From a virus: a stretch of DNA of 60,524 bases. Positions within the stretch are counted from its first letter, which is position 1. Every line of letters starts with the position of its first letter. The translations under genes and the position numbers were made by a program. Under the pieces are notes generated by a model, which was not told the origin of the DNA, ran no database searches, and was given only the letters and a program-made list of their open reading frames with translations. The DNA lies in the IMG/VR virus record IMGVR_UViG_3300037511_000399; one strand, 5' to 3'. Positions 2,416-58,216 of this stretch are shown one piece after another.

Positions 2416-3492
2416 ATGCCCCGGCGTATGCCCACAGAGCTGATGCGCTCGACTCTCGAGGTCGTGCGCGATGGATTGGCCGGCGACCCCGCGCACGAGT
2501 CCAAGGTGCGCGCGCTCGACAGGGTGATCGCGATGCTCGCGGACGATGGCCCGAGCGACAACCCCAGCGCCGTCCGCATGCGCCGCAAGCGCGCAAGGGA
2601 GAGAGAGCGGGGCGATAGCGGTGACGCCGAAGTGACAAAAGGTGACGTCACAAAGCCCGTCACTGTGACGCAAGGTGTGACGCCCCCAGTGACGCCGATT
2701 GTGACGTCACAAGTGCCTCGCGCGCGCGCGTTCTCAGATCAAGATCTCTCTCAAGATCTTGAGAATTCTGCAGAAAATCAGAAACGTAGTGAGAGATCTG
2801 GATCCGGATCTTCTGCTGTAACCGCGCGCGCGATCGCAGGACTGAGTGACGGTCACAGTGACGCGCCGCGTGACGTTCGTTCGGTTGCCCGTGAAACGCT
2901 CACCGTGCGCGGGCACCTCAAGCTCGAGGGCGCCAGGCTCTATCAGCGGCTGAGCGAGCAGGTCGCCGCCGCAACCGGTGCCGTCGGCTACGACGTCCAG
3001 CGCCACCTGCAGGACTGGGCTTGGATCGGCGAGCAGCCGGCCGAGCAGTGGACGCGCGTGCTGCAGTACATCGCGGCGGATCCGTGGTGCCGGTCGCTCG
3101 AGAACCGCGCGAAGGTCTCGCCGTCGCACATCCGTGGGCGCTGGCCGGTCTACTGCGAGCCGCCGAAGCCGGGCGCTGCACCGCCGCGCCCGGTGACGCG
3201 CGAGGAGCGTGCCGAGCTGTTCAAGCGCTTGCGTGCAGAGCTGCTCGCAGCGCGCGAGCGCAAGGCCGGTTCCGTCGGCTCAGCGCGCAGCGAAGCGGAA
3301 GCCGCGGCGTCTGCAGCCGAGCGTGCGATCGTCGAAGCGTTCGGCCCCGACGCACTCGACCGCATCGACGGTCGCGAGCCGAGCGCAGCGCCCGCGCCGA
3401 AGCCGCCGGTGCGCACGCAGCCGGCGAACGATCCCGAGGCCGACCTAGCGGCCTACCGCGCCGAGCAAGCGGCGCAGCGGAGCGCAGGATGA
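2416..3492 (+). CDS. replication-initiator-like protein carrying an internal ori-like DNA segment
   Basis: In frame of ORF 2185..3492, starting at ATG 2416 just after the upstream TAG. The linker region is encoded by an iteron-rich and A/T-rich stretch, analogous to lambda O/ori. The function is inferred from that architecture only. Confidence 0.45.
   Translation: MPRRMPTELMRSTLEVVRDGLAGDPAHESKVRALDRVIAMLADDGPSDNPSAVRMRRKRARERERGDSGDAEVTKGDVTKPVTVTQGVTPPVTPIVTSQVPRARAFSDQDLSQDLENSAENQKRSERSGSGSSAVTARAIAGLSDGHSDAPRDVRSVARETLTVRGHLKLEGARLYQRLSEQVAAATGAVGYDVQRHLQDWAWIGEQPAEQWTRVLQYIAADPWCRSLENRAKVSPSHIRGRWPVYCEPPKPGAAPPRPVTREERAELFKRLRAELLAARERKAGSVGSARSEAEAAASAAERAIVEAFGPDALDRIDGREPSAAPAPKPPVRTQPANDPEADLAAYRAEQAAQRSAG
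2621..2874. promoter_or_regulatory. candidate origin of replication: GTGAC iterons flanking an A/T-rich GATC cluster
   Basis: GTGAC at 2621, 2632, 2642, 2665, 2677, 2689, 2701, 2846, 2858, 2870. GTCAC at 2647, 2659, 2706, 2852. GTGACGTCAC palindromes at 2642-2651 and 2701-2710. The 2735-2815 segment is visibly A/T-rich, with six GATC sites and the 12-bp palindrome TCAAGATCTTGA at 2751-2762. Confidence 0.5.
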
Positions 3493-3833
3493 GCGACACG
3501 AAAGCCAAGCTGGCCGAGCTCGCCGCGCGTGCCGAGAGCGCAACCTCCGCAGTCGTGCGCCCGACCGATGCCGAGCTCGGGCAGGCGCGCGCGTGGGCCG
3601 AGCGCGTCGGGCATCGCTGGACCCAAAAGGCGAGCATCAGCCAAGAGGACGCCAAGACGGTCGCGCGCGTGCTGTCTTGGATGCTCGCCGAGCGCGGCGT
3701 GTTGCGTCGCGTCAGCGCCGAAGCCGTGCGCCGCTACGAGGGCGCGCCTGATCGCTTGGGCGAAGCGCTCGCGGCGCTCGACGTGTTCGATCAGCCCGGC
3801 GCGCAGCTGCCGCTGCTCGGAAAGGACCGGTGA
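3489..3833 (+). CDS. hypothetical protein (downstream partner of the initiator-like gene)
   Basis: In frame of ORF 3021..3833. ATG 3489 overlaps the upstream TGA. 114 aa: MSDTKAKLAELAARAES... Confidence 0.6.
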   Translation: MSDTKAKLAELAARAESATSAVVRPTDAELGQARAWAERVGHRWTQKASISQEDAKTVARVLSWMLAERGVLRRVSAEAVRRYEGAPDRLGEALAALDVFDQPGAQLPLLGKDR

Positions 3834-4498
3834 CCGTGAAGTCGCACGCCGAAGCGCTGGCGATCCTACAGGGACGCGACACGTGCCCGAAGCGCAAGCG
3901 CGTGCCGAAGCCGCCGGAGCCGGCGTCGTTGCATCCGCACGAGTGCGTGGTGATCGGCGTCGACGCTGGCACCGCATGCTCGGGCGTCAGCACATGGGTG
4001 CGCGGCGTACTCGTCGGCTACGGCGAGATCAAGAACCTGGACCCGGCTGCGATCGACGCCGCCATCGCATCGGCTGAGTTGCTCGGCAGCGTTGCCGGCA
4101 TCCCGCTCGTGATGGTTCATGAGCGGCCGCCACCGGCTCACGTGATCTACGAGGGCCGCGACTCGTCGGGTGTCGTTGGCGCGAACAAGGCCATCGAGTC
4201 GTGGCGTAATGCCTGGGTCCGCGCCGGCTACACGATGCGGCGCTTCATCGGCGTGCAGGTCAACCGCTGGCGCGCAAGGGTGCTCGGACGCGGCTGGGGC
4301 GGCGGAGTGGCGCGCGTTGTCGTGCGCGACCGCGAGCAACAGGTCGCGCGCGTGATAGCAGAGGCCGAGGGCTTGAGCGCGCCGATCGGTCCCGACGCCG
4401 CGCCAGCCATCTGTATCGGCTTCTGGGGAACGCGCGCGGGCGAGGTCGGCAAGGTGCTGGTGCCGACGGCACAGCGCCGGCGACGGAGGTCTGCATGA
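3830..4498 (+). CDS. RuvC-like Holliday junction resolvase (putative)
   Basis: ORF-track 222 aa. The N-terminal motif VVIGVDAGTACSG resembles the RuvC-family catalytic Asp motif, and an acidic residue in VMVHERPP follows. Confidence 0.5.
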   Translation: MTVKSHAEALAILQGRDTCPKRKRVPKPPEPASLHPHECVVIGVDAGTACSGVSTWVRGVLVGYGEIKNLDPAAIDAAIASAELLGSVAGIPLVMVHERPPPAHVIYEGRDSSGVVGANKAIESWRNAWVRAGYTMRRFIGVQVNRWRARVLGRGWGGGVARVVVRDREQQVARVIAEAEGLSAPIGPDAAPAICIGFWGTRAGEVGKVLVPTAQRRRRRSA

Positions 4499-34944: not shown

Positions 34945-34950
34945 GCTCGG

Positions 34951-35023
34951 CTCCGGGGGCAGGATTCGAACCTGCGATCTCTCGAGTAACAGTCGAGCGC
35001 AGTACCAGCTGTGCCACCCCGGA
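34951..35023 (-). tRNA. tRNA-Asn (anticodon GUU)
   Basis: The reverse complement folds by hand as follows. Acceptor TCCGGGG/CCCCGGA. Anticodon arm CTCGA-CTGTTAC-TCGAG. T-arm GCAGG-TTCGAAT-CCTGC. Discriminator G. 73 nt. The D-stem has one C-C mismatch. Confidence 0.85.
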
Positions 35024-35059
35024 ATGAGTGAGCAGGCGCGCCGGATCGCTCCGGTGCGC

Positions 35060-35173
35060 CTATCGATTCAGCTGCAGCTGCGACAGGTACGCCTTGCATA
35101 CGATGCAGCGCGAGGCCCCGAACGGAACCTGTGCACCGCATGCCTTGCAGCGTTTGCCCTTCACGAGCAGCAA
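35060..35173 (-). CDS. possible mini zinc-ribbon protein (CxxC-x9-CxxC), start uncertain
   Basis: Tail of ORF 35060..35317: ...KGKRCKACGAQVPFGASRCIVCKAYLSQLQLNR. Only TTG (35173) or GTG (35164) starts are available and no clear SD is present. Confidence 0.3.
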   Translation of the reverse strand: MLLVKGKRCKACGAQVPFGASRCIVCKAYLSQLQLNR

Positions 35174-35267
35174 CGTAACGCGCGCATCGGTTCGGCGCCA
35201 GCGACTCGAACGCTGATTGGCGGGACCAAGGCCCGCAGTCCTGCCGTTGGACGAGCGCCGAAAGTGC

Positions 35268-40622: not shown

Positions 40623-43600
40623 GTGCCGTCGCTCAACGCCAACAGCTCCGGCACGCTGGCGCTGACCAGCAACCTGCCCGGTCTCGCGTCCAACACGTAC
40701 AACTACACGCTGCGCGTGTTCTTCCGGCTGCTGGGGCTGGCCGACCAGCCCGTGATGACGATCGACGACGCCGGCTCCAACTACTGGCAGTGGTGGACGA
40801 CGGCCGCCGGCGCGCTCGAGATCGACAGCAACACCGGCAACACGGCGCTGCTCACAGGTCTGTCGACGAGCGAGTGGATCGGCATCATTTCGCGGATCGA
40901 CGCCAGCACGTCGCGCACCTGCACGCGGCGAGGCTTGGCAAAGCCCGTGTTCACGAACGCGACCGACGTCCTGGCCGCGAGCGGCATCTGGCTCGCGGGC
41001 TCCGGCTTCAGCGAGCACTGCAACGTGGTCGTGCGCGGCTGGGCCATCTGGGACTCGCAACTCACGGACGCCGAGATGATCGCCGAGCTGCAGCAGCTCG
41101 AGCCCGTCAAGCGCGCGACCCTCTTTCACTACGAGGACTGCGGCGGCGTGATCGCAGCGGCAGGCCGCGACGTGAGCGGGCGCGGGCGCAACTTCACGCG
41201 CGCCGGCACGTGGATCGTGTCGCAGTGGGAGCCGCCGGTACCGCCGAACCGCGACTCGACTCAGCGCATCCTCGATGCTGCTGCGAACGCGTACACGCTG
41301 ACAGCTGCAAGCAAGGGCATCGACCTGGCCGAGCGGTCGGCTGGGCTCACCGCACAGCGCCAGCTCGCCGCTGCGAGCAAGAGCATCGATCTCGCCGAGC
41401 AGTCGGCGGTGCTGAACTATGGGTTCACCTTGCCGGCCTCGAGCGCGGCGCTGAACCTCGCCGAGCGAGATGCAGGCTTGACCGCGCAGCGGACGCTGGC
41501 GGCTGCGAGCAAGAGCATCAACCTGGCCGAGCAGGCGGCGAGCCTGTCGGGAGCGTTCCCTCTCGTCGCGTCGGCGAGCGGTCGTTTCCTCCAAGATCAG
41601 AACGGCGTTCCGTTTCGCATCCAGAGTGAGAGCGCGTGGCTCATGTCGATCTACGGCACGAGCTCGAGCGTCGACAGCTACCTCGACGATCGACTGGCGA
41701 AGGGGTTCAACACCTTCATTTTGATGCCGATCGTCACATCTGACTTCGGTGGTCCCAACAATGCGAATGGTGATGCCCCATTCAGCACAGCCGGGCACTT
41801 CTCGACCACAAACAATGCGTACTGGAATTTCATCGACACCATCATGACCAAGGCGCTGGCGCGCAACATGGTGGTCAAGTTTGCGATGGTGTATCTCGGC
41901 TTCGGCGGCGGCTCGCAGGGCTGGGCGAGCGAGATCACGCAGAGCTACAACGCCGATCCGGTGATGTTCAACTATGGGGTTTTTCTCGCGACCCGCTACG
42001 CGAGCTTTCCCAATGTCATCTGGTACACGTGCGGTGACTACGGCCCTCCGACAGGCGGCACGCTCAGCTTGCGCGTGCAGAAGGTTCGCGACGGCATTCT
42101 CTCCGTGCTGCCGGACGCGATCTTCGGCGCTGAAATGGACAACCCCGACACGATGCCGGGGGACTACACAGATTTCAGCAACCTAGACTGCAACACAGCA
42201 TATGGGTACGGGCCGAGCGGTCGTCCTGATCAGACGTACGACACTGCCGATCGCAGCTGGGGGTATGGAAAGCCCGCGTGGATCGGTGAGCCCGCGTACG
42301 AAGACACAGCGTTTGGAACCGATCCATCGCGCGAAGGCATCCGCGCATCGCAGTGGTGGTCGATCACAGGCGGCATGGTCGCTGGCTGCAGCATGGGCAC
42401 GAAGGGTATCTGGGATTTCGGGCTCTCAGCGTCGGTTGCGTCGCGGCTCGAGACCGACGTTTGCCACGACACCGTCTATCAAAACGACTTCTGGTCAGCG
42501 CTCAAGTGGTACCTGCATGTGCCGAGCGGCAAGACAGAGATCTCGAGCCGCACGCTCTGCTCACAGCCGAGCGCCAACAACTACGAGCACGTCCAGGCGA
42601 GCATGGCCAGCGACGGCAGCTCGCTCGTTGCGTACGTGCCGCCCAACGGCACGGGCACCGTCACATTCACAGTAGACCTGCGCGGCATGGCCGCGGGCAC
42701 GCTGCGCGCGCGCTGGTACAACCCGACCGACGGCACCTACAGCACGACCGGCCTCACCGGCACGTTCGACAACACGCAGAACGCGAAGAGCGTCACGACG
42801 CCAGGCGACAACGGCACGGCACAGGGTGACTGGGCTCTGCTTGTGGACGTGCCGCCCGCTGCGAACGCGTACACGCTGACAGCTGCGAGCAAGAGCATCG
42901 ACCTGGCCGAGCGGTCGGCTGGGCTCACCGCACAGCGCCTGCTGACGGCCGGCAGCGCGGCAAGCAACCTCGCAGAGCAGCCGGCAGGGCTCACGGCGCA
43001 GCGCGTGCTTGCCGCGGTCGCTGCGTCGCTGAACATGGCCGAGCAGGCGGCGGGTCTCACCGCACAGCGCGTGCTCAGCGCCGCGAGCAAGAGCCTCGAC
43101 CTCGCCGCGAACGATGCCGCGCTGCTGTATGGCCTGCAGCTGGTCGCCGCGAGCAAGGGCATCGATCTCTCGGCCAACGACGTCGCGCTGCTGCGCGCGC
43201 TGGTGCTGTCGGTGGACAGCAAGGCGCTCGACCTGGCAGGGCGCGACGCGGCCCTGACCTACTCGTCGCTCCGCACGCTCGTCGCGTCGGCGGCGTCGCT
43301 CAACCTGACCGAGCGCGATGCTGGCCTGCTCCGCACGCTGCTGCTTGCGATCGACAGCAAGGCAATCGATCTCTCCGCGCTGCCGGCTACGCTGGCCTGG
43401 TCGTCGCTGGTGACGTCGGTGGGCGCGGTGCGCGCGTCGCGCTCGAGCTCGCGATCGGTGCAGGTCTCTGGAGACCATCGGCCGCGCTCGGTCGCGCTCA
43501 AGCGTCGGCCGACTTACGCGACAAGCACGCGAGCCCAGCACACGCGCGTGAGCGGCGTTCCTGTCCCTGACTACGCCGTGTTCGGCGCGTTGCCGGCGCA

Positions 43601-44621
43601 CCGCGCGGTGTGGTGCCCCTATGAGCGCCTGACCGGGTACGCCGGCCCGCTTGCACGCGCGACCGACCTGGTTGACGGCCGCCAGACTAGCGTCACAGCG
43701 CCGTCGGGCAACGGCTCTCAAGCTGACCTCGATGCGATCATCGCCTTCGGCGGAGCTCACGCGGTCGGCGTGTCCCTCCTGTACGATCAATCCGGCTACA
43801 GCTACTCGGTGCCGTCGCTCGGCAATGATCTGATGTCGGGCGGCTCCGTCGCCTCCCCGTCCTACCCCGGGCCGCCGGTGTACCCCGGCTATCAGGGCAT
43901 CGACCCCGGAGCGATGCCGCGCATCTATGACCCGGCGCAGGGCGGCATCTCCGCCGCCAACGGCAAGCCCTCGCTGCGCTGCACCGGCAACACCAACACC
44001 ATCCAGGCGACGGGGACCTGCTTTCGGCGGGGCCCCTGCTACGGCTATCCCCCTGAGCCGTGGGACCCGGCGAACAACCTGGGCTTCACCGGCAACCCGG
44101 CGATCACGCTCTGGTGGGTCGGTCAGTGGGTGGACGACGGGCTCGGCAACGGCAGCGCGCGGTACCTCATGGAGCTCGGCGAGTTCTTCGGCCCCTCGCT
44201 GCTCGGCGGGCTCGGTCTCTCCGTGCAGGAGCCGGGGCTCAACCGGCTGTGGATCACCGGCGGCCCTGACAACCCTTCTCCGCCGTTCAGCCGGCACCTG
44301 AAGTTCAACCTGACGGTTCCGTACGGAACGATGCAGCACTACGTCGTGCGGCGCGCGGCAGGCGCGCGCTGGGACCAGACGCAGCTCTGGCAGAACGGCG
44401 TGCTGCAAACCAACGTGGTCGCGGGGTCCGGCAACACCGCAGAGCAGCTCCTGCTGCAGCCCAGCCCGTTCGGCGCCATCGCCCTGATGTGCTCCAGCTA
44501 CGAGCAGCAGTACGCCAACGGCTTTCTGCGCGCTGCCGGCGTATGCGCTCAGGCGCTGACCGACGACCAGCTCACCACGTACCTATTTCCCAACCTCAAC
44601 CGCCTTGCTGGGCTTCCGTAG
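40623..44621 (+). CDS. tail fibre / tailspike with embedded glycoside-hydrolase-like domain
   Basis: ORF-track 1332 aa. The domain order is as follows. An N-terminal jelly-roll-like region comes first. Four ~22-aa repeats (AASKSIDLAERSAGLTAQR..) follow. Next is a ~420-aa insert starting RFLQDQNGVPFRIQSESAWLM and ending ...RARWYNPTDGTYS. Then eight more repeats. A distinct ~370-aa C-terminal domain closes the protein. Confidence 0.65.
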   Translation: MPSLNANSSGTLALTSNLPGLASNTYNYTLRVFFRLLGLADQPVMTIDDAGSNYWQWWTTAAGALEIDSNTGNTALLTGLSTSEWIGIISRIDASTSRTCTRRGLAKPVFTNATDVLAASGIWLAGSGFSEHCNVVVRGWAIWDSQLTDAEMIAELQQLEPVKRATLFHYEDCGGVIAAAGRDVSGRGRNFTRAGTWIVSQWEPPVPPNRDSTQRILDAAANAYTLTAASKGIDLAERSAGLTAQRQLAAASKSIDLAEQSAVLNYGFTLPASSAALNLAERDAGLTAQRTLAAASKSINLAEQAASLSGAFPLVASASGRFLQDQNGVPFRIQSESAWLMSIYGTSSSVDSYLDDRLAKGFNTFILMPIVTSDFGGPNNANGDAPFSTAGHFSTTNNAYWNFIDTIMTKALARNMVVKFAMVYLGFGGGSQGWASEITQSYNADPVMFNYGVFLATRYASFPNVIWYTCGDYGPPTGGTLSLRVQKVRDGILSVLPDAIFGAEMDNPDTMPGDYTDFSNLDCNTAYGYGPSGRPDQTYDTADRSWGYGKPAWIGEPAYEDTAFGTDPSREGIRASQWWSITGGMVAGCSMGTKGIWDFGLSASVASRLETDVCHDTVYQNDFWSALKWYLHVPSGKTEISSRTLCSQPSANNYEHVQASMASDGSSLVAYVPPNGTGTVTFTVDLRGMAAGTLRARWYNPTDGTYSTTGLTGTFDNTQNAKSVTTPGDNGTAQGDWALLVDVPPAANAYTLTAASKSIDLAERSAGLTAQRLLTAGSAASNLAEQPAGLTAQRVLAAVAASLNMAEQAAGLTAQRVLSAASKSLDLAANDAALLYGLQLVAASKGIDLSANDVALLRALVLSVDSKALDLAGRDAALTYSSLRTLVASAASLNLTERDAGLLRTLLLAIDSKAIDLSALPATLAWSSLVTSVGAVRASRSSSRSVQVSGDHRPRSVALKRRPTYATSTRAQHTRVSGVPVPDYAVFGALPAHRAVWCPYERLTGYAGPLARATDLVDGRQTSVTAPSGNGSQADLDAIIAFGGAHAVGVSLLYDQSGYSYSVPSLGNDLMSGGSVASPSYPGPPVYPGYQGIDPGAMPRIYDPAQGGISAANGKPSLRCTGNTNTIQATGTCFRRGPCYGYPPEPWDPANNLGFTGNPAITLWWVGQWVDDGLGNGSARYLMELGEFFGPSLLGGLGLSVQEPGLNRLWITGGPDNPSPPFSRHLKFNLTVPYGTMQHYVVRRAAGARWDQTQLWQNGVLQTNVVAGSGNTAEQLLLQPSPFGAIALMCSSYEQQYANGFLRAAGVCAQALTDDQLTTYLFPNLNRLAGLP
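41280..41361 (+). repeat. 82-bp direct repeat, copy 1 (inside tail-fibre gene)
   Basis: 80 of 82 nt identical to 42858-42939. Confidence 0.9.
42858..42939 (+). repeat. 82-bp direct repeat, copy 2 (inside tail-fibre gene)
   Basis: 80 of 82 nt identical to 41280-41361. Confidence 0.9.
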
Positions 44622-45780: not shown

Positions 45781-45899
45781 GGCTTCGGCCTCGTGAGGAA
45801 CGCGAGCAGCGCGATCGCGCCAACGAAGATCAGCACCACGCCGGCAAGCACGCCGGACAGGATGTCGCCCGGCGTGACGACGAAGGTGATGCCGCTCAT
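45777..45899 (-). CDS. small membrane protein (40 aa)
   Basis: In frame of ORF 45777..46091. ATG 45899. MSGITFVVTPGDILSGVLAGVVLIFVGAIALLAFLTRPKP. Coupled overlaps at both ends. Confidence 0.45.
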   Translation of the reverse strand: MSGITFVVTPGDILSGVLAGVVLIFVGAIALLAFLTRPKP

Positions 45900-46510
45900 C
45901 GCTTTTTTCCTGTCTCGCCGGCCGGCACGACCACGCGGAACGGCTGCCGCGCTGCCGCGTCGATCAGCTGTTCGGTGAGCTGCGCGCGGTCGCGCGATTG
46001 GTGCAGCACCAGCTGTATGAGCACCTCGACGAACGGCTCGGTGCCGGTCTCGTACTTGATCAGGAACGCGTGCACGTTCGGATCGCGCCATGCGGCGTCA
46101 TAGAGCGCGAGCATCAACGAGCGGGGCACGTCCTTCGGCGCTCGGCGCTCGAGTCGATCGCGGTTCTTGAATTCGCGATACTGGTCAACCACGCGCTGCG
46201 CGAACGGGCGCACGGCATCGACGATCCGTTGCTCCCGCACCGCTTCGATCTGCGCGCCGTCGAGCAGGCCAGCGCACGCGAGGTCGACGATGTGCTCAAG
46301 CTCGGCCGTCGCAGCAGTCAGCGGCGACTGCGCTTCCCGGATCTTCGCGCGCATCTCGTCGAACACCCGCGGCGGCAGGGTGTTCCAGACGTCGCGCGCG
46401 ACCTTGATGGTGCACAGCTGCGTCACCAGGTCGTAGTCGCCGACCACTTCGCGCTCGAGCATGCGCCCGACCTCGGCCGCGAGCCGTTCGGCAGCTTCGT
46501 TGGGCTTCAT
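45896..46510 (-). CDS. hypothetical protein (204 aa)
   Basis: ORF-track. Its ATG overlaps the integrase stop (ATGA). Confidence 0.65.
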   Translation of the reverse strand: MKPNEAAERLAAEVGRMLEREVVGDYDLVTQLCTIKVARDVWNTLPPRVFDEMRAKIREAQSPLTAATAELEHIVDLACAGLLDGAQIEAVREQRIVDAVRPFAQRVVDQYREFKNRDRLERRAPKDVPRSLMLALYDAAWRDPNVHAFLIKYETGTEPFVEVLIQLVLHQSRDRAQLTEQLIDAAARQPFRVVVPAGETGKKR

Positions 46511-48087
46511 ACCGCTTCCTCCGCGTCGGTGGTCGCAGCCAGGGCGCCGAGCACGAGCTCGGCCAGCGCCACCGCGCGGACGCCCAGCTGGTCGTGGCGG
46601 GCGCCGTCGATCGCGCGGGCGGCTGCCGGAAGGGGCAGCTCGAGCACGGCCGCAGCGAGGCGCTCGGCGTCCTCGCGGAGCACCGCGCCGCGCGCCGCTT
46701 GGACCAGCATGGCGATCGCCAGCCCCTGCAGCTTCGCTGGCCCCACGCCGGCCCCAGGCGCTCCCAACCCCGCGCCAAGACTCAGATCACCAGCCGTTTC
46801 GTAAACCGTAGGTCTCGGGTTCAAATCCCGAAGATGGCTCCGGCCTGATTCAGCAGGCAGATCAGCAGCTTTCGCCGATGCTCGCGCCGAGCTCGGCGCC
46901 GAACCTGGGGCCGGCGTGGGGACGGTGGCCGCCGCAGCGGCGTGCAAGCGGTCGGGCGACAGGTGCGCGTAGCGCTGGGTCACGGTCACGTCGGAGTGGC
47001 CGAGGAAGTCGCGCACTTCCTCGAGCCGCCAGGCGCGTCCCCACGTGCCCATTAGCAGATGCGACGCGCAGGTGTGCCGCAGGTCGTGGAACCGGGCCGC
47101 GCGCACGATGCCGGCGAGCTGCCGGTGCTCGGCCCACCGTGCGTCATCCCACTTGGAGCGCATGCCGCCGGCCCTGGTCGGGAAAACAAGCGACTGAACG
47201 TCATCGCGTTGTTTTGGCGTTCTGAGCTTCTGCAGCCGATCGAGCGCGGCGCGCGCTGGCGCGAGCAGCGGCACCAGGCGGATCTTGCCGTTCTTCGGCG
47301 CCTCGGTCCTCGAGCGCCGGACCATAAGGTGAGGCGTTGCGTGGTCGAGGTAGACGTCGCCCCAGCGCAGGCCCCACAGCTCGCCCTTGCGCAAGCCGGT
47401 GTAGACCGCGACAGCGAACAGCAGCCGATACGGCTCGGGGATCTCCGCGCACTGCAGCAGCGACTCGATCTCGGCCTGGGTCAGGTACGTCCACGGCTCG
47501 CGCGTGTACTGCGCTTTCGGCAGCCGCACGCCGTGCGCGGGGTTCTCGTCGATGTGGCCCGCTTCGACGGCGTCGCGCAGGCACACGCGCAGCGTTGCGA
47601 AGATATGCGCGATCGTGTGCCGGCTCAGCGTGCGCTCGAGCTCGCGCAGACCGCCGCGGCCGTCGTGGCGACGCACACGGCGCAGCACAAGGCTGTGGAC
47701 CCAGGCGCGCAGCTGGCGCGTGCTGATCGCGTCGAGCGGGTCGTCGGCCCAGGGCTCGGCCAGCACGTGCGCGCGCAACCGGGAGCGATCGTCGTCGATC
47801 GAGCGCACCGCGCCGGACAGCTCGCGGACCTCGAGCCACCGCTCGACCCAGTCGCGCAGCGTGATCGCGCCGGATGTGGTGCCGCCGGCGGCGAGCTTGT
47901 CGAGCGCGGCTTGCAGCACGCCCGCGGCCTCGTCGTGGCTGTCGTAGGTGCCGAGCTCGACGCGCTTGCCGCCGATGCGCAGCCGGGCGCGGTGCCGGCC
48001 GTTGCGTTCCTCGATCGATCCCGCGCCCATCGGCCGCTTGTCCGACGAGCCGGCGGGCCGGCGCAAGCTGCTCGGGCGGTCAGCCAT
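46507..48087 (-). CDS. int: tyrosine integrase with long C-terminal extension
   Basis: ORF-track 526 aa. AP2-like N-terminus (RHRARLRIGGKRVELGTY). Catalytic signature TGLRKGE, HDLRHT, LGHSDVTVTQRYAH, with Tyr at about residue 373. About 150 further codons read through a tRNA-like sequence. Confidence 0.85.
   Translation of the reverse strand: MADRPSSLRRPAGSSDKRPMGAGSIEERNGRHRARLRIGGKRVELGTYDSHDEAAGVLQAALDKLAAGGTTSGAITLRDWVERWLEVRELSGAVRSIDDDRSRLRAHVLAEPWADDPLDAISTRQLRAWVHSLVLRRVRRHDGRGGLRELERTLSRHTIAHIFATLRVCLRDAVEAGHIDENPAHGVRLPKAQYTREPWTYLTQAEIESLLQCAEIPEPYRLLFAVAVYTGLRKGELWGLRWGDVYLDHATPHLMVRRSRTEAPKNGKIRLVPLLAPARAALDRLQKLRTPKQRDDVQSLVFPTRAGGMRSKWDDARWAEHRQLAGIVRAARFHDLRHTCASHLLMGTWGRAWRLEEVRDFLGHSDVTVTQRYAHLSPDRLHAAAAATVPTPAPGSAPSSARASAKAADLPAESGRSHLRDLNPRPTVYETAGDLSLGAGLGAPGAGVGPAKLQGLAIAMLVQAARGAVLREDAERLAAAVLELPLPAAARAIDGARHDQLGVRAVALAELVLGALAATTDAEEAV
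46797..46841 (+). mobile_element. attP core candidate: 3' part of a tRNA-Thr(CGU)-like sequence inside the int ORF
   Basis: Anticodon-loop-like TTCGTAA, variable AGGTC, T-arm TCGGG-TTCAAAT-CCCGA, 3' acceptor AGATGGC, then TCC. The 5' half upstream is degenerate, with only 4 of 7 acceptor pairs. Confidence 0.55.
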
Positions 48088-48323
48088 CAGCGATCGCCCT
48101 CAATCAGCAGGTGGCCGAGCCCGGCACGGCGCAGAGCCTTGTTGGCGCGGACCCGAGAGAGATCGTCGACCGGCACCAGGCGCGGGGGGTTGTACTGCGG
48201 CCGCGCGCGCTTGCGCTTACCCGTCGCTGACGCCGGCGGCACAGCTTCGGGGCGCTCGAGCGCCGCGGCGATCCGCTCCAAGGCGGACGCGATGCGGTCG
48301 AGCTCGTTGCGCGCGTTGCTCAC
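48087..48323 (-). CDS. small protein immediately upstream of int (excisionase/directionality-factor candidate)
   Basis: In frame of ORF 48087..48371. GTGA-coupled start at 48323. The stop overlaps the int ATG. The assignment rests on position only. Confidence 0.35.
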   Translation of the reverse strand: MSNARNELDRIASALERIAAALERPEAVPPASATGKRKRARPQYNPPRLVPVDDLSRVRANKALRRAGLGHLLIEGDR

Positions 48324-48661
48324 AAGCACCCCCGTCGCCACGCTGCGATCAGCTCGCGTAGCAGCAGCCACCGCTCGCCGGTCGTCTTTGTTGGTATCAC
48401 TCCGAACCGGGCCCGCGAGCCGAAGTCGGGCAGCCGCTCACCGAGCACGCGGCAGAGCAGGCGGGCGCTTCTAAGCGATGACACACTCGAACCGAGCGCG
48501 TTGCCGCTCGGAACGTGCGTGATATTCCACGACAGACTGACAGGCGCCTTGTTGGCGTCGATGGTGGGCGTGACCGCCCAGACGCCGCGGCGCATCGCCG
48601 GCGTCACCGTGAACGACTCGCCGGTTCTCATTGCAAGCTCGATGGTCGCGCGCGTTCTCAT
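48320..48661 (-). CDS. hypothetical protein
   Basis: In frame of ORF 48320..48826. ATG 48661. MRTRATIELAMRTGESFTVTP... Confidence 0.55.
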   Translation of the reverse strand: MRTRATIELAMRTGESFTVTPAMRRGVWAVTPTIDANKAPVSLSWNITHVPSGNALGSSVSSLRSARLLCRVLGERLPDFGSRARFGVIPTKTTGERWLLLRELIAAWRRGCL

Positions 48662-49947: not shown

Positions 49948-50375
49948 CAGAACAGCTCCCCTGCGGCCTTGCGTGCGCGCCGCGTCTGCCGCGCGTTCTT
50001 CGCGTGCTCGTGCCGGTCGAGTCGAAGGTGGCAGCGCTGGCAGAGCGCGAGCAGGTTGCTGTCGGCGTTGTTCGTCGGGTCGTGGTCCAGGTGCGCGACC
50101 GTGAGCACGATGCGAACCGCGCGCGCGCAGTCGGGATCGCCGCCCGCGCAACCGCCGCACGGAGCGTGGTAGGCGAACCGCGCCGGCCGCTTCGGGTCGC
50201 GCAGGACAAGCTCGCCGTTCGCTGCGCAGCAACGCGGCGCGCCCGCTTGGTCGTGCTCATCGCCGCACTGCCCGGTGCACTCGCAGCGGTTGGCTGCGCG
50301 CTCGCGAATGCGCTTGCTGATCGCGGGCCAGTCCCGCGGGTAGAGCGCGCGCTGCGATTCGCGGATCGGGCTCAT
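49947..50375 (-). CDS. HNH endonuclease
   Basis: In frame of ORF 49947..50822. ATG 50375. VAHLDHDPTNNADSNLLALCQRCHLRLD is a classic H-N-H motif. Confidence 0.8.
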   Translation of the reverse strand: MSPIRESQRALYPRDWPAISKRIRERAANRCECTGQCGDEHDQAGAPRCCAANGELVLRDPKRPARFAYHAPCGGCAGGDPDCARAVRIVLTVAHLDHDPTNNADSNLLALCQRCHLRLDRHEHAKNARQTRRARKAAGELF

Positions 50376-51172
50376 GCTGCAGCCTCGAGCGCGTGCGCCT
50401 TGGGGTACGGCAGCGACGCGGGCAGGTGCCGACGTAGGCGCCGATCGAGCGCCCATAGGTATCGGTGATTGCCGCGGTGCCGATACGTACGGCTGACCGC
50501 GCCGATCGCGCGCGTGCACCACGCGCGCCAGTCGCCGTCGGGCTCGGGCGCGCCGTGGCGCAGCAGCAGCTCGACCACGTAGCGCCAGCCGCGGTCGCGC
50601 AGCCGCAGCTTGGACAGCGCGCGCGGGCTCAGCACCGTACCGTCGGGCAGCAGGCGTTGCGTGCTGGGCTTGGTGAGCCCGCGATACGTCGCGTTGGTCG
50701 CCTGGTAGATCGTGCCGAGGTGCCCGGCGAACACCGCTTCGCCATGCGCGTTGGTGCGCTGCCACGGATCGGAGTGCGCGACGATGCCGGCGAAGCCATC
50801 GCGCGCAGCGAGGTCGAAGCACCGCGCCAGAAACCAGCTCTCACCATTGGCCGGCACGTTGTCGAGCAGCACGAAGCGCCCGAGCTCGGCGCGCGCACTC
50901 GCGTCGACCGGCAGCGGACACGACACCTCGAGCGCGGCCTGGCTCGGTGGCTGCGACAGGACGGCGACGCCAACGAGCTCGTCGCGGCGGTACAGGCCGA
51001 AGCGCGCCCGCGCGGCGGGGAACGAGCCCGAGTAGTGATGCTGCTCGACGAACGCGCGCGCGATGCGGTCGGAGTCGATGCGCGCGACATCGTAGAGCGC
51101 GGTGCGGATCGGCTCGCCGGCGGGGCGGTAGCTGTCGCGGCGGTCGCGCCAGCGCTGACAGGCGATCGTCAC
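50372..51172 (-). CDS. Mom-like GNAT-fold DNA-modification protein (putative)
   Basis: In frame of ORF 50372..51235. GTGA-coupled start at 51172. The pattern QHHYSGSFP...FGLY...ELGRFVL...VAHSDP...GHLGTIYQATNATYRGLT parallels the pattern recalled for phage Mu Mom relatives. Confidence 0.45.
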   Translation of the reverse strand: MTIACQRWRDRRDSYRPAGEPIRTALYDVARIDSDRIARAFVEQHHYSGSFPAARARFGLYRRDELVGVAVLSQPPSQAALEVSCPLPVDASARAELGRFVLLDNVPANGESWFLARCFDLAARDGFAGIVAHSDPWQRTNAHGEAVFAGHLGTIYQATNATYRGLTKPSTQRLLPDGTVLSPRALSKLRLRDRGWRYVVELLLRHGAPEPDGDWRAWCTRAIGAVSRTYRHRGNHRYLWALDRRLRRHLPASLPYPKAHALEAAA

Positions 51173-57153: not shown

Positions 57154-57447
57154 GTGCGCACCGTGAAGCCGTTCCGCGATCGCAACACGCTTTGGTACAG
57201 CGAGGCGTGCTCCGCGGAATGGGTGCGCGCGTTCTTCGTTCGCGAGATCGCAACGCAGGCGCTCGCGGCCGTAGGCGAGCCGCAGACGTTCGCCGCGGTG
57301 GAAGCGCTGAGCTCGTCGATCAGGCGCTATGCGCGCGGCGTCGCGACTTTGGAGCGGCCGGCGGCGGTGAGGACGCGGGCGCGGTCAGCTTCGGCAATTC
57401 TGCCAATCGTGCAGCAGCAGCTGCCTGCGCCTTCCGATCCTCTCTAA
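57154..57447 (+). CDS. possible ORF convergent with, and overlapping, the repressor 3' end
   Basis: In frame of ORF 57013..57447, GTG 57154. The first ~60 codons have high G/C third positions (VRTVKPFRDRNTLWYSEACSAEWVRAFFVREI...). It overlaps 57320-57447 of the minus-strand gene. Confidence 0.3.
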   Translation: MRTVKPFRDRNTLWYSEACSAEWVRAFFVREIATQALAAVGEPQTFAAVEALSSSIRRYARGVATLERPAAVRTRARSASAILPIVQQQLPAPSDPL

Positions 57448-57765
57448 TCGCGATCAGCATCGACAGCCGGTCGAGCTTCGTCGCGGTCGTTTCCATCACG
57501 CGATCGAGCAACTCGCGCTCGTCGGCGGTCTCTGGATCGGGTGCGTCGTCGCGGTCGCTGCCGGTGAGCTCGTCGAACGAGTGACCGAGCCGCTTGGCGA
57601 TCTTCACGAGCGTGTCAGCGGCCGGCAGCGTGCGCCCCTTCTCGAGTCGCCATAGCGTGGTGGGGTCGATGCCGCACTCGCGGGCGAGCTTGCGCTGCGT
57701 GAGCTTCGGTTTTTGTTCGGCGCGCCAGAGCCGGACGCGCGCACCAATGACTGACGTGTCATCCA
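57320..57765 (-). CDS. XRE/cI-type HTH repressor
   Basis: In frame of ORF 57320..57814, ATG 57765. IGARVRLWRAEQKPKLTQRKLARECGIDPTTLWRLEKGRTLP is a classic HTH_XRE. Divergent from a Cro-like gene. Confidence 0.7.
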
Positions 57766-57842
57766 TAGTCTTACCCCGCCGTACTGCTTTGAAACCAGTA
57801 CCAGCGCTCTGCATGTCTGCCTAGGCCCCTAATCGGCACCGT

Positions 57843-57883
57843 TTGACTTGCTCTGCATCGATGCAGTATGCAACAGTGCAGAG
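57843..57883 (+). promoter_or_regulatory. rightward early promoter (TTGACT-N17/18-GTATGCA) with operator palindrome
   Basis: TTGACT at 57843-57848. Perfect 14-bp palindrome CTGCATCGATGCAG at 57853-57866 in the spacer. An inverted CTCTGCA / TGCAGAG pair at 57851-57857 and 57877-57883. Confidence 0.5.
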
Positions 57884-57886
57884 CAA

Positions 57887-58216
57887 ATGGTCCGGCGCCC
57901 TTCCAAACTCCTCGGCGAGCGGCTGCGCAAGCTCCGCGCGCGCCTCAAGAACCCCGACGGCTCGCCCGTCACGCAAGCGCAGGTCGCTGCGCGCTGCGGG
58001 TGGAGCGCTGACAAGCAGTGGCGGTACGAGGACGGCCGCAACGTCCCGAGCGCCGAGCGCCAGGTGAAGCTGGCAAAGGTGCTCGGGACCACCGTCGAGG
58101 AGCTGCAGGCGGACAACTCGCTGATCGATGCGCTGCCGCTGCCCGACAAGGACAGCGACGACGGCGAGTCGAACGAAGATGAGACCGCGCGCGCCGTGCA
58201 CTCGGGTGCCGCGTGA
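57887..58216 (+). CDS. Cro-like XRE HTH protein
   Basis: In frame of ORF 57848..58216, ATG 57887. LGERLRKLRARL...VTQAQVAARCGWSADKQWRYEDGRNVPS. Confidence 0.65.
   Translation: MVRRPSKLLGERLRKLRARLKNPDGSPVTQAQVAARCGWSADKQWRYEDGRNVPSAERQVKLAKVLGTTVEELQADNSLIDALPLPDKDSDDGESNEDETARAVHSGAA

Follow-up and report, generated by a model that had tools for sequence, protein, structure and literature searches.

A putative attachment site derived from tRNA-Thr(CGU) within the integrase gene of an uncultured phage of Polyangiales-type Myxococcota, and the predicted truncation of the integrase upon integration

The window, i.e., the whole stretch of 60,524 nucleotides (nt) of viral DNA analysed here (IMG/VR record IMGVR_UViG_3300037511_000399), carries on its minus strand (46507-48087) int, the gene of a tyrosine integrase (Int) with 526 amino acids (aa) in the full-length form of the episome. 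With a probability of roughly 0.8, the window represents a temperate phage of Polyangiales-type bacteria whose phage attachment site (attP) lies wholly within the 3' third of int, so that integration would truncate Int with a functional effect similar to that described for phage Mx8. The arrangement itself is known, and what is new here are the family-wide picture, the arm sites embedded in the coding sequence and a previously undescribed C-terminal domain. Usually cited as a single case, the Mx8 arrangement turns out to be widespread in this integrase lineage, and the finding would identify both the clade of the host and the precise place at which an uncultured phage of 60 kb integrates.

The core of the proposed attP is a 46-nt segment (plus strand, 46796-46841; GTTTCGTAAACCGTAGGTCTCGGGTTCAAATCCCGAAGATGGCTCC) that is identical to positions 29-74 of tRNA-Thr(CGU), i.e., from the anticodon loop to the 3' end. 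It features the anticodon loop TTCGTAA (anticodon CGT), the variable loop, the T-arm TCGGG/TTCAAAT/CCCGA and the acceptor part AGATGGC followed by TCC, and on the opposite strand, which is that of int, it forms codons 416-431 (SHLRDLNPRPTVYE). An earlier reading of this DNA, referred to here as the first-pass annotation, had taken these codons for the reverse complement of a tRNA 3' part and proposed a tRNA-Thr(CGU) gene as the bacterial attachment site (attB) and as a hint at the host clade, to be looked for in bacterial genomes and metagenomes. Both suggestions were borne out. A 39-nt pattern from the fragment, scanned against one genome per species in 185,579 species, was found at two loci, both of them complete tRNA-Thr(CGU) genes in metagenome-assembled genomes (MAGs): L004 in a Polyangiales MAG and L005 in that of an 'uncultured delta proteobacterium', where the contig has 1.78 Mb. 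The window agrees with these genes at 46/46 positions, with the match ending sharply at both sides, and the same identity was found to complete tRNA-Thr(CGU) genes on nine metagenome contigs. This match to the host tRNA gene is not due to chance. No integrase is present within 8 kb of the tRNA gene of L005, and the site therefore looks unoccupied, i.e., like an empty attB. Compared with the 84% identical relative L016, codons 416-432 show no synonymous change (the ratio of nonsynonymous to synonymous substitution rates, dN/dS, is not defined); the core codons are constrained as DNA.

A scan of metagenomes for the core as such returned ten loci with the exact sequence, nine being the full tRNA genes and one belonging to another element. 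At locus L007, the 46-nt core (3026-3071) lacks the tRNA 5' half and has a 38% identical integrase (3660-4400) about 590 nt upstream of it; the sense strand of the tRNA is here the int strand, which is the opposite relative orientation to that in the integrase family of the window. L007 may be a different type of element that shares the attB.

The phage identity of the window is confirmed by genes for a portal protein and an endolysin. Contigs that are broken at differing points (60531, 60538, and 60551 bp) encode an Int identical to that of the window, which thus represents a complete, circularly permuted episomal phage genome. Altogether, the exact Int was found on six contigs, all in the class of 50-200 kb and, where the length is given, of about 60.5 kb and circular type. 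As the Int of the window is annotated by NCBI under 'Polyangiales bacterium' and the phage contig was binned with a Polyangiales MAG, database records and the tRNA match both point to a Polyangiales-type member of the Myxococcota (soil myxobacteria) as the host of this 60-kb temperate phage. In GenBank phages, a DNA search with the int region gave no match, and the best 25 rows of a protein search were integrases with about 28-30% identity over the catalytic part, with Mx8 absent among them.

The core is bracketed by an 18-bp perfect inverted repeat (I5; 46741-46758, CCCCACGCCGGCCCCAGG, and 46904-46921). At control positions of the same geometry, an inverted repeat of this length was present in 0 of 270 cases, the longest one having 13 bp. 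Each arm consists of two 7-nt units of the GGCCCCA type spaced 11 bp apart, and the two pairs are mutually inverted. In the P arm (46739-46758), the candidate sites GGCCCCA are located at 46739-46745 and 46750-46756 and contribute to the peptide PGAGVGP (codons 444-450), while the P' arm (46904-46923) contains the candidate sites TGGGGCC (46906-46912) and TGGGGAC (46917-46923) and encodes PTPAPG (codons 389-395). Three of the nine exact copies of GGCCCCA in the 60.5-kb window fall within these 174 bp. Since the arms flank the core inside int, the whole proposed attP (46739-46923) is contained in codons 389-450. These codons have a G+C content at third positions (GC3) of 0.565 compared with 0.88-0.93 in the rest of int, and a G+C content at second positions (GC2) of 0.71; their composition is shaped by DNA function rather than by codon usage. 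The encoded linker is rich in proline, alanine, and glycine and predicted to be disordered, with the proposed attP largely overlapping a segment (residues 399-447) in which the predicted local distance difference test score (pLDDT) of an AlphaFold2 (AF2) model stays below 50. The linker codons 379-415 have a dN/dS of 0.57 relative to L016.

The layout of two plus two units spaced 11 bp apart is kept at the same distances in at least six relatives with other cores, the unit sequences being mostly different: GGCCCCA in L017, CTGGCCGGA in L028, ATTGGCCCA in L043, TGTCNGC in L045, TCTCCCC in L025, and a GCACCAC type in L102. Units that vary between phages within a fixed geometry are what would be expected of arm-type integrase sites. 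The apparently conserved peptide motifs GPTxAP and GAxVGP in the linker are accordingly explained by the inverted repeat in the DNA, of which they are the mutually reverse-complementary translations in shifted frames. A direct repeat of 12 nt (CAGATCACCAGC/CAGATCAGCAGC; 46783-46794 and 46858-46869) adjoins the core on the left and lies 17 nt off on the right, which is a suggestive position; it was rejected as a functional site, being no stronger than many chance repeats nearby. Furthermore, a 'tRNA-His(GTG)' was called by ARAGORN on the sense strand downstream of the core in the int gene of a relative (L101:797-875; L102:3810-3888, plus strand), where it overlaps the downstream arm repeat. This call is probably a false positive of G+C-rich DNA.

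An antisense T-arm-like element is a recurrent feature of related integrase genes. Of the related loci, 26 allowed the int motif to be located; 21 of these contain such an element 73-156 nt past the RY codon, with the distance being 105-156 nt in 18 of them, and the anticodon loops in the int fragments of the relatives are of several kinds. The phage contig L020, which carries a terminase gene, encodes an Int of 519 aa containing 47 nt of tRNA-Gly(CCC), and a 448-aa relative of this Int on a long MAG contig (L018) ends inside a complete tRNA-Gly gene next to cellular genes. Likewise, the integrases of L031 and L041 end in tRNA-Arg(TCT). At the other side of the site, L101, a contig of 1.5 kb, agrees at 100% with L102, a phage contig of 60.8 kb, at int codon 403 and beyond, and the two diverge 4 nt past the tRNA fragment; L101 therefore represents a right prophage junction (attR). 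An attP inside int is common in this integrase family, with tRNA targets that include Thr, Gly, Arg, Lys, and others. The related loci also bear on the notion that the tRNA-like stretch of the window is a chance or transduced fragment, with the real attP elsewhere in the genome. ARAGORN called no tRNA at 46796-46841 and the Rfam tRNA model gave a weak alignment under threshold (19.4 bits, E 0.29), as might be expected of such a fragment, but both results are explained by the presence of a tRNA 3' fragment only. In view of the identity at 46 of 46 positions, the flanking arm-type repeats, the similar fragments in the related loci and the junctions of relatives located exactly at the fragment, this notion is hardly credible.

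The catalytic part of Int is complete upstream of the attP. The Pfam family Phage_integrase (PF00589) matches residues 201-378 (46954-47487, minus strand) with an E of 1e-25, PHROG 1 (integrase) matches with an E of 2e-65, and the residues R233, H334, R337, H364, and Y373 (Tyr373 codon, 46969-46971) are invariant across 51 homologues. AF2 modelling on these 51 homologues gave a confident structure (mean pLDDT 83.5) with a recombinase body reaching to residue 387. In the N-terminal part, residues 23-66 (47890-48021, minus strand) are modelled with a pLDDT of about 90 as a three-stranded sheet (23-28/31-38/41-48) and a helix (51-66), and the family PF26003 (Integrase_N_phage) is annotated in relatives of this Int. 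On the basis of the model, this segment is a candidate for the arm-site DNA-binding domain.

The RYAH motif occupies residues 372-375 and is followed by 151 codons, in agreement with the earlier estimate of about 150. The tail ends in a C-terminal four-helix domain (residues 450-526; 46510-46740, minus strand), which would be removed from Int on integration. AF2 places the four helices at residues 450-525 (pLDDT of about 90 within the whole protein), and the domain folds alike alone (pLDDT 86). Relative to L016, codons 451-526 show 13 synonymous and 6 nonsynonymous changes (dN/dS 0.17; GC3 0.91, GC2 0.50), with codons 20-200 of the N-terminal part having a dN/dS of 0.15 and a GC3 of 0.93. Homologue counts rest on 120 listed homologues, 45 of which contain the C-terminal domain, and it stays in frame despite varying linker lengths. 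Purifying selection, a coding-type GC3, conservation and the confidently predicted fold thus all indicate that the tail is translated. The first-pass annotation had argued for translation from the ATGA overlap of the int stop codon TGA with the start codon ATG of the next gene (46507-46510, minus strand; TCAT on the plus strand). This overlap is real and the conclusion stands, but as evidence the overlap is weak, as it is not shared by the 84% identical L016. The arrangement had also been regarded as rare outside Mx8, which is wrong for this lineage given the 45 of 120 homologues and the 745 cluster representatives matched by a profile of the C-terminal domain.

The best matches of this profile are mostly open reading frames (ORFs) of 60-190 aa whose first codon lies within the linker or the tRNA-derived peptide, and they fit orphan attR-side fragments or partial genes. 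Such entries would also fit a C-terminal domain that is translated from a start codon of its own within int as a small protein in its own right, with Int ending or being processed upstream and the long ORF being a by-product of high G+C content, since long spurious ORFs are common in DNA with 70% G+C. However, no stop codon separates the two parts in the relatives examined and the frame is kept across linker lengths and tRNA cores. The short entries, moreover, either have their start inside the linker or the tRNA-derived peptide or equal the C-terminal sequences of long forms: P0121 is the end of P0063, and P0123 is P0094 after the core, on the contig with the attR junction. A separate protein is therefore very hard to sustain as an explanation. 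As an observation on database content, hundreds of short ORFs (among P0121-P0264) consist of little beyond the integrase C-terminal domain, and many open with a tRNA-derived peptide. At least one of them, P0123 (L101:496-1074), is an orphan on the attR side whose reading frame enters from the host DNA.

The form of Int expected in the prophage can be deduced from an in-silico left junction (attL) in which the core joins the 5' half of the host tRNA to the right arm of the phage. The predicted Int has 437 aa and ends in ...TVYETVALPLS, i.e., residues 1-431 are followed by VALPLS and 95 codons (432-526) are swapped for 6, with the stop codon being the TAA of the universal D-loop TTAGCTCAG read antisense. 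Related integrases at the same tRNA end as predicted. In L004, an integrase (43% identity over the 243 residues that the contig encodes) is located directly 3' of the tRNA-Thr gene and reads into it, ending in ...SHLRDLNPRPTVYETVALPLS and a stop, and a third integrase on the metagenome contig L008 likewise ends as predicted at tRNA-Thr. The earlier proposal of a C-terminal swap on integration is therefore supported, its extent being corrected from about 100 codons to the exchange given above.

For the phage itself, the following course of events is proposed. The attP DNA would encode a disordered linker that tethers the four-helix domain to the catalytic domain. Recombination of attP with attB would rebuild the tRNA gene from a host 5' part and a phage 3' part, yielding a predicted attL of ...GTGGTAGAGCAACG + core + GGCCTGATTCAGC and a predicted attR of ...CAGATCACCAGCC + core + non-phage sequence. 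In the integrated state, translation of int would pass the core and continue antisense through the 5' half of the tRNA up to the TAA in the D-loop, and the prophage Int would keep its arm-binding, core-binding, and catalytic domains and lose the C-terminal domain. The coding sequence of the latter, together with four downstream operon genes (45896-46510 and beyond), would end up at attR, severed from the int promoter. If Mx8 is taken as the model, efficient integration would be the task of the full-length enzyme, which only circular DNA can encode, and the truncated prophage Int would have an altered or reduced activity with excision still being possible; loss of the C-terminal domain thus probably changes the activity of Int. 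Since the form of Int depends on whether the DNA is circular or integrated, the state of the gene is proposed to help set the direction of recombination. A more far-reaching and tentative idea, which could well prove wrong, is that across a large family of integrases of Myxococcota phages the four-helix domain reports the state of the genome by enabling the integrative synapsis, e.g., by bridging protomers or arm-bound N-terminal domains. Its loss would then leave an excision-only Int, the directionality would reside in the gene topology and not solely in an excisionase, and the ORF of the domain left behind at attR might act in trans.

Conversely, the attP in int and the truncation could be real and the swap without regulatory meaning, with the C-terminal domain serving stability or an interaction in the lytic cycle, or with the prophage form being equivalent. 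That a recombinase can work without the tail is suggested by the 20 of 120 listed homologues whose sequence ends no more than 45 residues past RYAH and by L023, where the tRNA fragment lies just past the int stop codon; as some relatives stop before attP, the recombinase needs no tail to fold. Many of the shorter listed homologues end inside the tRNA-derived peptide. A function of the domain could also not be recognised from Pfam, the PDB or Foldseek. On the other hand, purifying selection on the C-terminal domain is as strong as on the N-terminal one, the domain stays directly after attP across many tRNA targets and functional consequences of the swap have been reported for Mx8 (PMC6070905), which makes a swap devoid of regulatory meaning rather unlikely.

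The comparison with Mx8 offers the closest precedent. The Mx8 int gene (L003:5208-6809), the textbook example of an attP within int, encodes 533 aa and includes, near codon 416, a tRNA T-arm and acceptor in antisense orientation, which confirms the precedent cited in the first-pass annotation. Both genes encode tyrosine integrases of Myxococcota phages with the core at about the same place (codon 416 of 533 and of 526, respectively), and in both the antisense tRNA 3' end lies about 40 codons past the catalytic tyrosine and is followed by about 100 codons. The alignment of the two proteins, which had been suggested as a check, succeeded in part: Int of the window is 27% identical to Mx8 IntP over residues 53-307 (E 2e-13), whereas the catalytic and C-terminal parts were unalignable by BLASTP. 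With similarity limited to this region, the integrase would thus be like Mx8 IntP in its working and is no close family member. Further differences are Uoi of Mx8, which has no homologue in the window (the upstream ORF was compared), and the target, which is another tRNA than the tRNA-Thr used here. The target of Mx8 is reported to be tRNA-Asp. Integration of Mx8 provides int with a new 3' end, and the specificity of Int is modified without inactivation (review, PMC6070905). In the Islander paper, Mx8 and SSV are named as integrases that extend across attP. Judged by sequence, the window presents the IntP/IntX type of arrangement of Mx8 in a distantly related integrase, and hence a kind that is already known.

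Several results weigh against the preferred reading of an int-embedded attP with an Mx8-like effect. A profile of the C-terminal domain gave no significant match to the C-terminal segment of Mx8 IntP, and as the domain is unlike the Mx8 tail, functional data from Mx8 can be transferred by analogy only. The scan that detected the inverted repeat of tandem sites found none flanking the core of Mx8. No relative of known function was detected for the C-terminal domain in Pfam (no family beyond scattered weak matches), in the PDB (designed helical proteins only, E>0.04, in a sequence-profile search) or by Foldseek against the PDB (nothing below E 4.8). That Int binds the GGCCCCA units is suggested only by their pattern, and no excisionase was identified by Pfam, PHROG, and comparison with Mx8 Uoi. 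The crossover is localised no finer than the 46-bp core; as a guess, it may occur at the symmetric T-arm or close to it, and TTCAAAT may form the overlap. Finally, among the loci carrying the core in genomes and metagenomes, none is an attL or attR of this very phage, and a metagenome scan specific for attL (tRNA 5' side + core + GGCC) gave no match. The search for prophage junctions proposed earlier was thus successful for relatives, with junctions of the attL and attR type, and unsuccessful for the phage itself. The missing lysogen junctions, together with the size class and, where the length is given, the circular type of the six contigs, would suit an int-attP module in disuse, with an episomal or effectively lytic phage and the tRNA match as a well-preserved relic. 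Such a relic is improbable, as the core is identical to the host gene throughout and has not drifted synonymously from that of L016, the two arms of the inverted repeat match without exception, purifying selection acts on int, a divergent pair of helix-turn-helix (HTH) repressor-like genes is present and very close relatives of other family members were found integrated. The integration of this phage at 46796-46841 accordingly remains the best-fitting inference.

Other systems share single elements of this design. With the heterobivalent integrases of the lambda type (lambda, L5, P22, P4), the modelled Int has in common an N-terminal sheet-plus-helix, a core-binding and a catalytic domain, and both feature repeated short sites one helical turn apart around the core as well as a tRNA 3' end that is rebuilt by the phage copy. 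In the lambda type, however, attP is located outside int and the enzyme is unaltered by integration, whereas the arm sites of the window form a symmetric inverted pair of two plus two and are themselves coding sequence. In the 'suicidal' integrases of SSV-type archaeal viruses and plasmids, attP lies within the int ORF and the gene is changed by integration, which was called exclusive to archaea (PMC8371274). The phage of the window likewise has its proposed attP inside int, but while the SSV-type genes are inactivated by a split that precedes their catalytic part, the split here would occur at codons 416-431 or thereabouts, past the domain end at about residue 387, and all catalytic residues are kept in one ORF. 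The mycobacteriophages BPs, Brujita, and Charlie, which have an integration-dependent immunity, carry attP in the repressor gene, and their integration removes a C-terminal degradation tag and thereby alters the protein in the lysogen. In comparison, the affected gene here is the integrase and the part predicted to be removed is a folded domain of 75 residues.

For annotation, the proposed arrangement implies that integrases of about 430-450 aa, being the prophage form, and the short ORFs labelled 'hypothetical' at the opposite end of the prophage are the halves of one gene. Besides, Mx8-based integration vectors use compact int-attP cassettes, and new tRNA targets could widen the genetic tools for myxobacteria.

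In the neighbourhood of int, the downstream gene (45896-46510, minus strand) encodes 204 aa without a Pfam match or a significant PHROG match. A small upstream ORF of 78-94 aa (48087-48371, minus strand) has its stop codon overlapping the int start. Its position would fit an excisionase, but it was rejected as such, having no Pfam match, weak PHROG matches of unknown function only and no similarity to Mx8 Uoi. A scan for promoters and terminators around attP gave nothing over background. In L016 (7554-9228), int and the upstream genes are arranged as in the window and the downstream cargo is wholly different, comprising PadR-like, DUF3307, endonuclease VII, and SpoU methylase genes; the attP-distal side of int therefore appears as a point of gene swapping.

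A divergent pair of HTH genes (HTH_3/HTH_31) is located at the head of the int operon (about 57320-58090, L001:1-768, and about 50372-51172, L001:6916-7716) and is likely to be the immunity switch. Farther along this operon, genes for a Mom-like protein (PF25680), Sipho_Gp157 and AAA_24/Sak4-like proteins are found. The phage further carries its own genes for tRNA-Asn(GTT) and tRNA-Gln(TTG), about 170 bp apart (34949-35261, minus strand). Convergent with the int operon, a gene on the plus strand (40623-44621) encodes a protein of 1332 aa with Apiosidase and weak collagen-binding Pfam matches and many internal repeats of the type LTAASKSIDLAERSAGLTAQR, which is probably a tail fibre or depolymerase.

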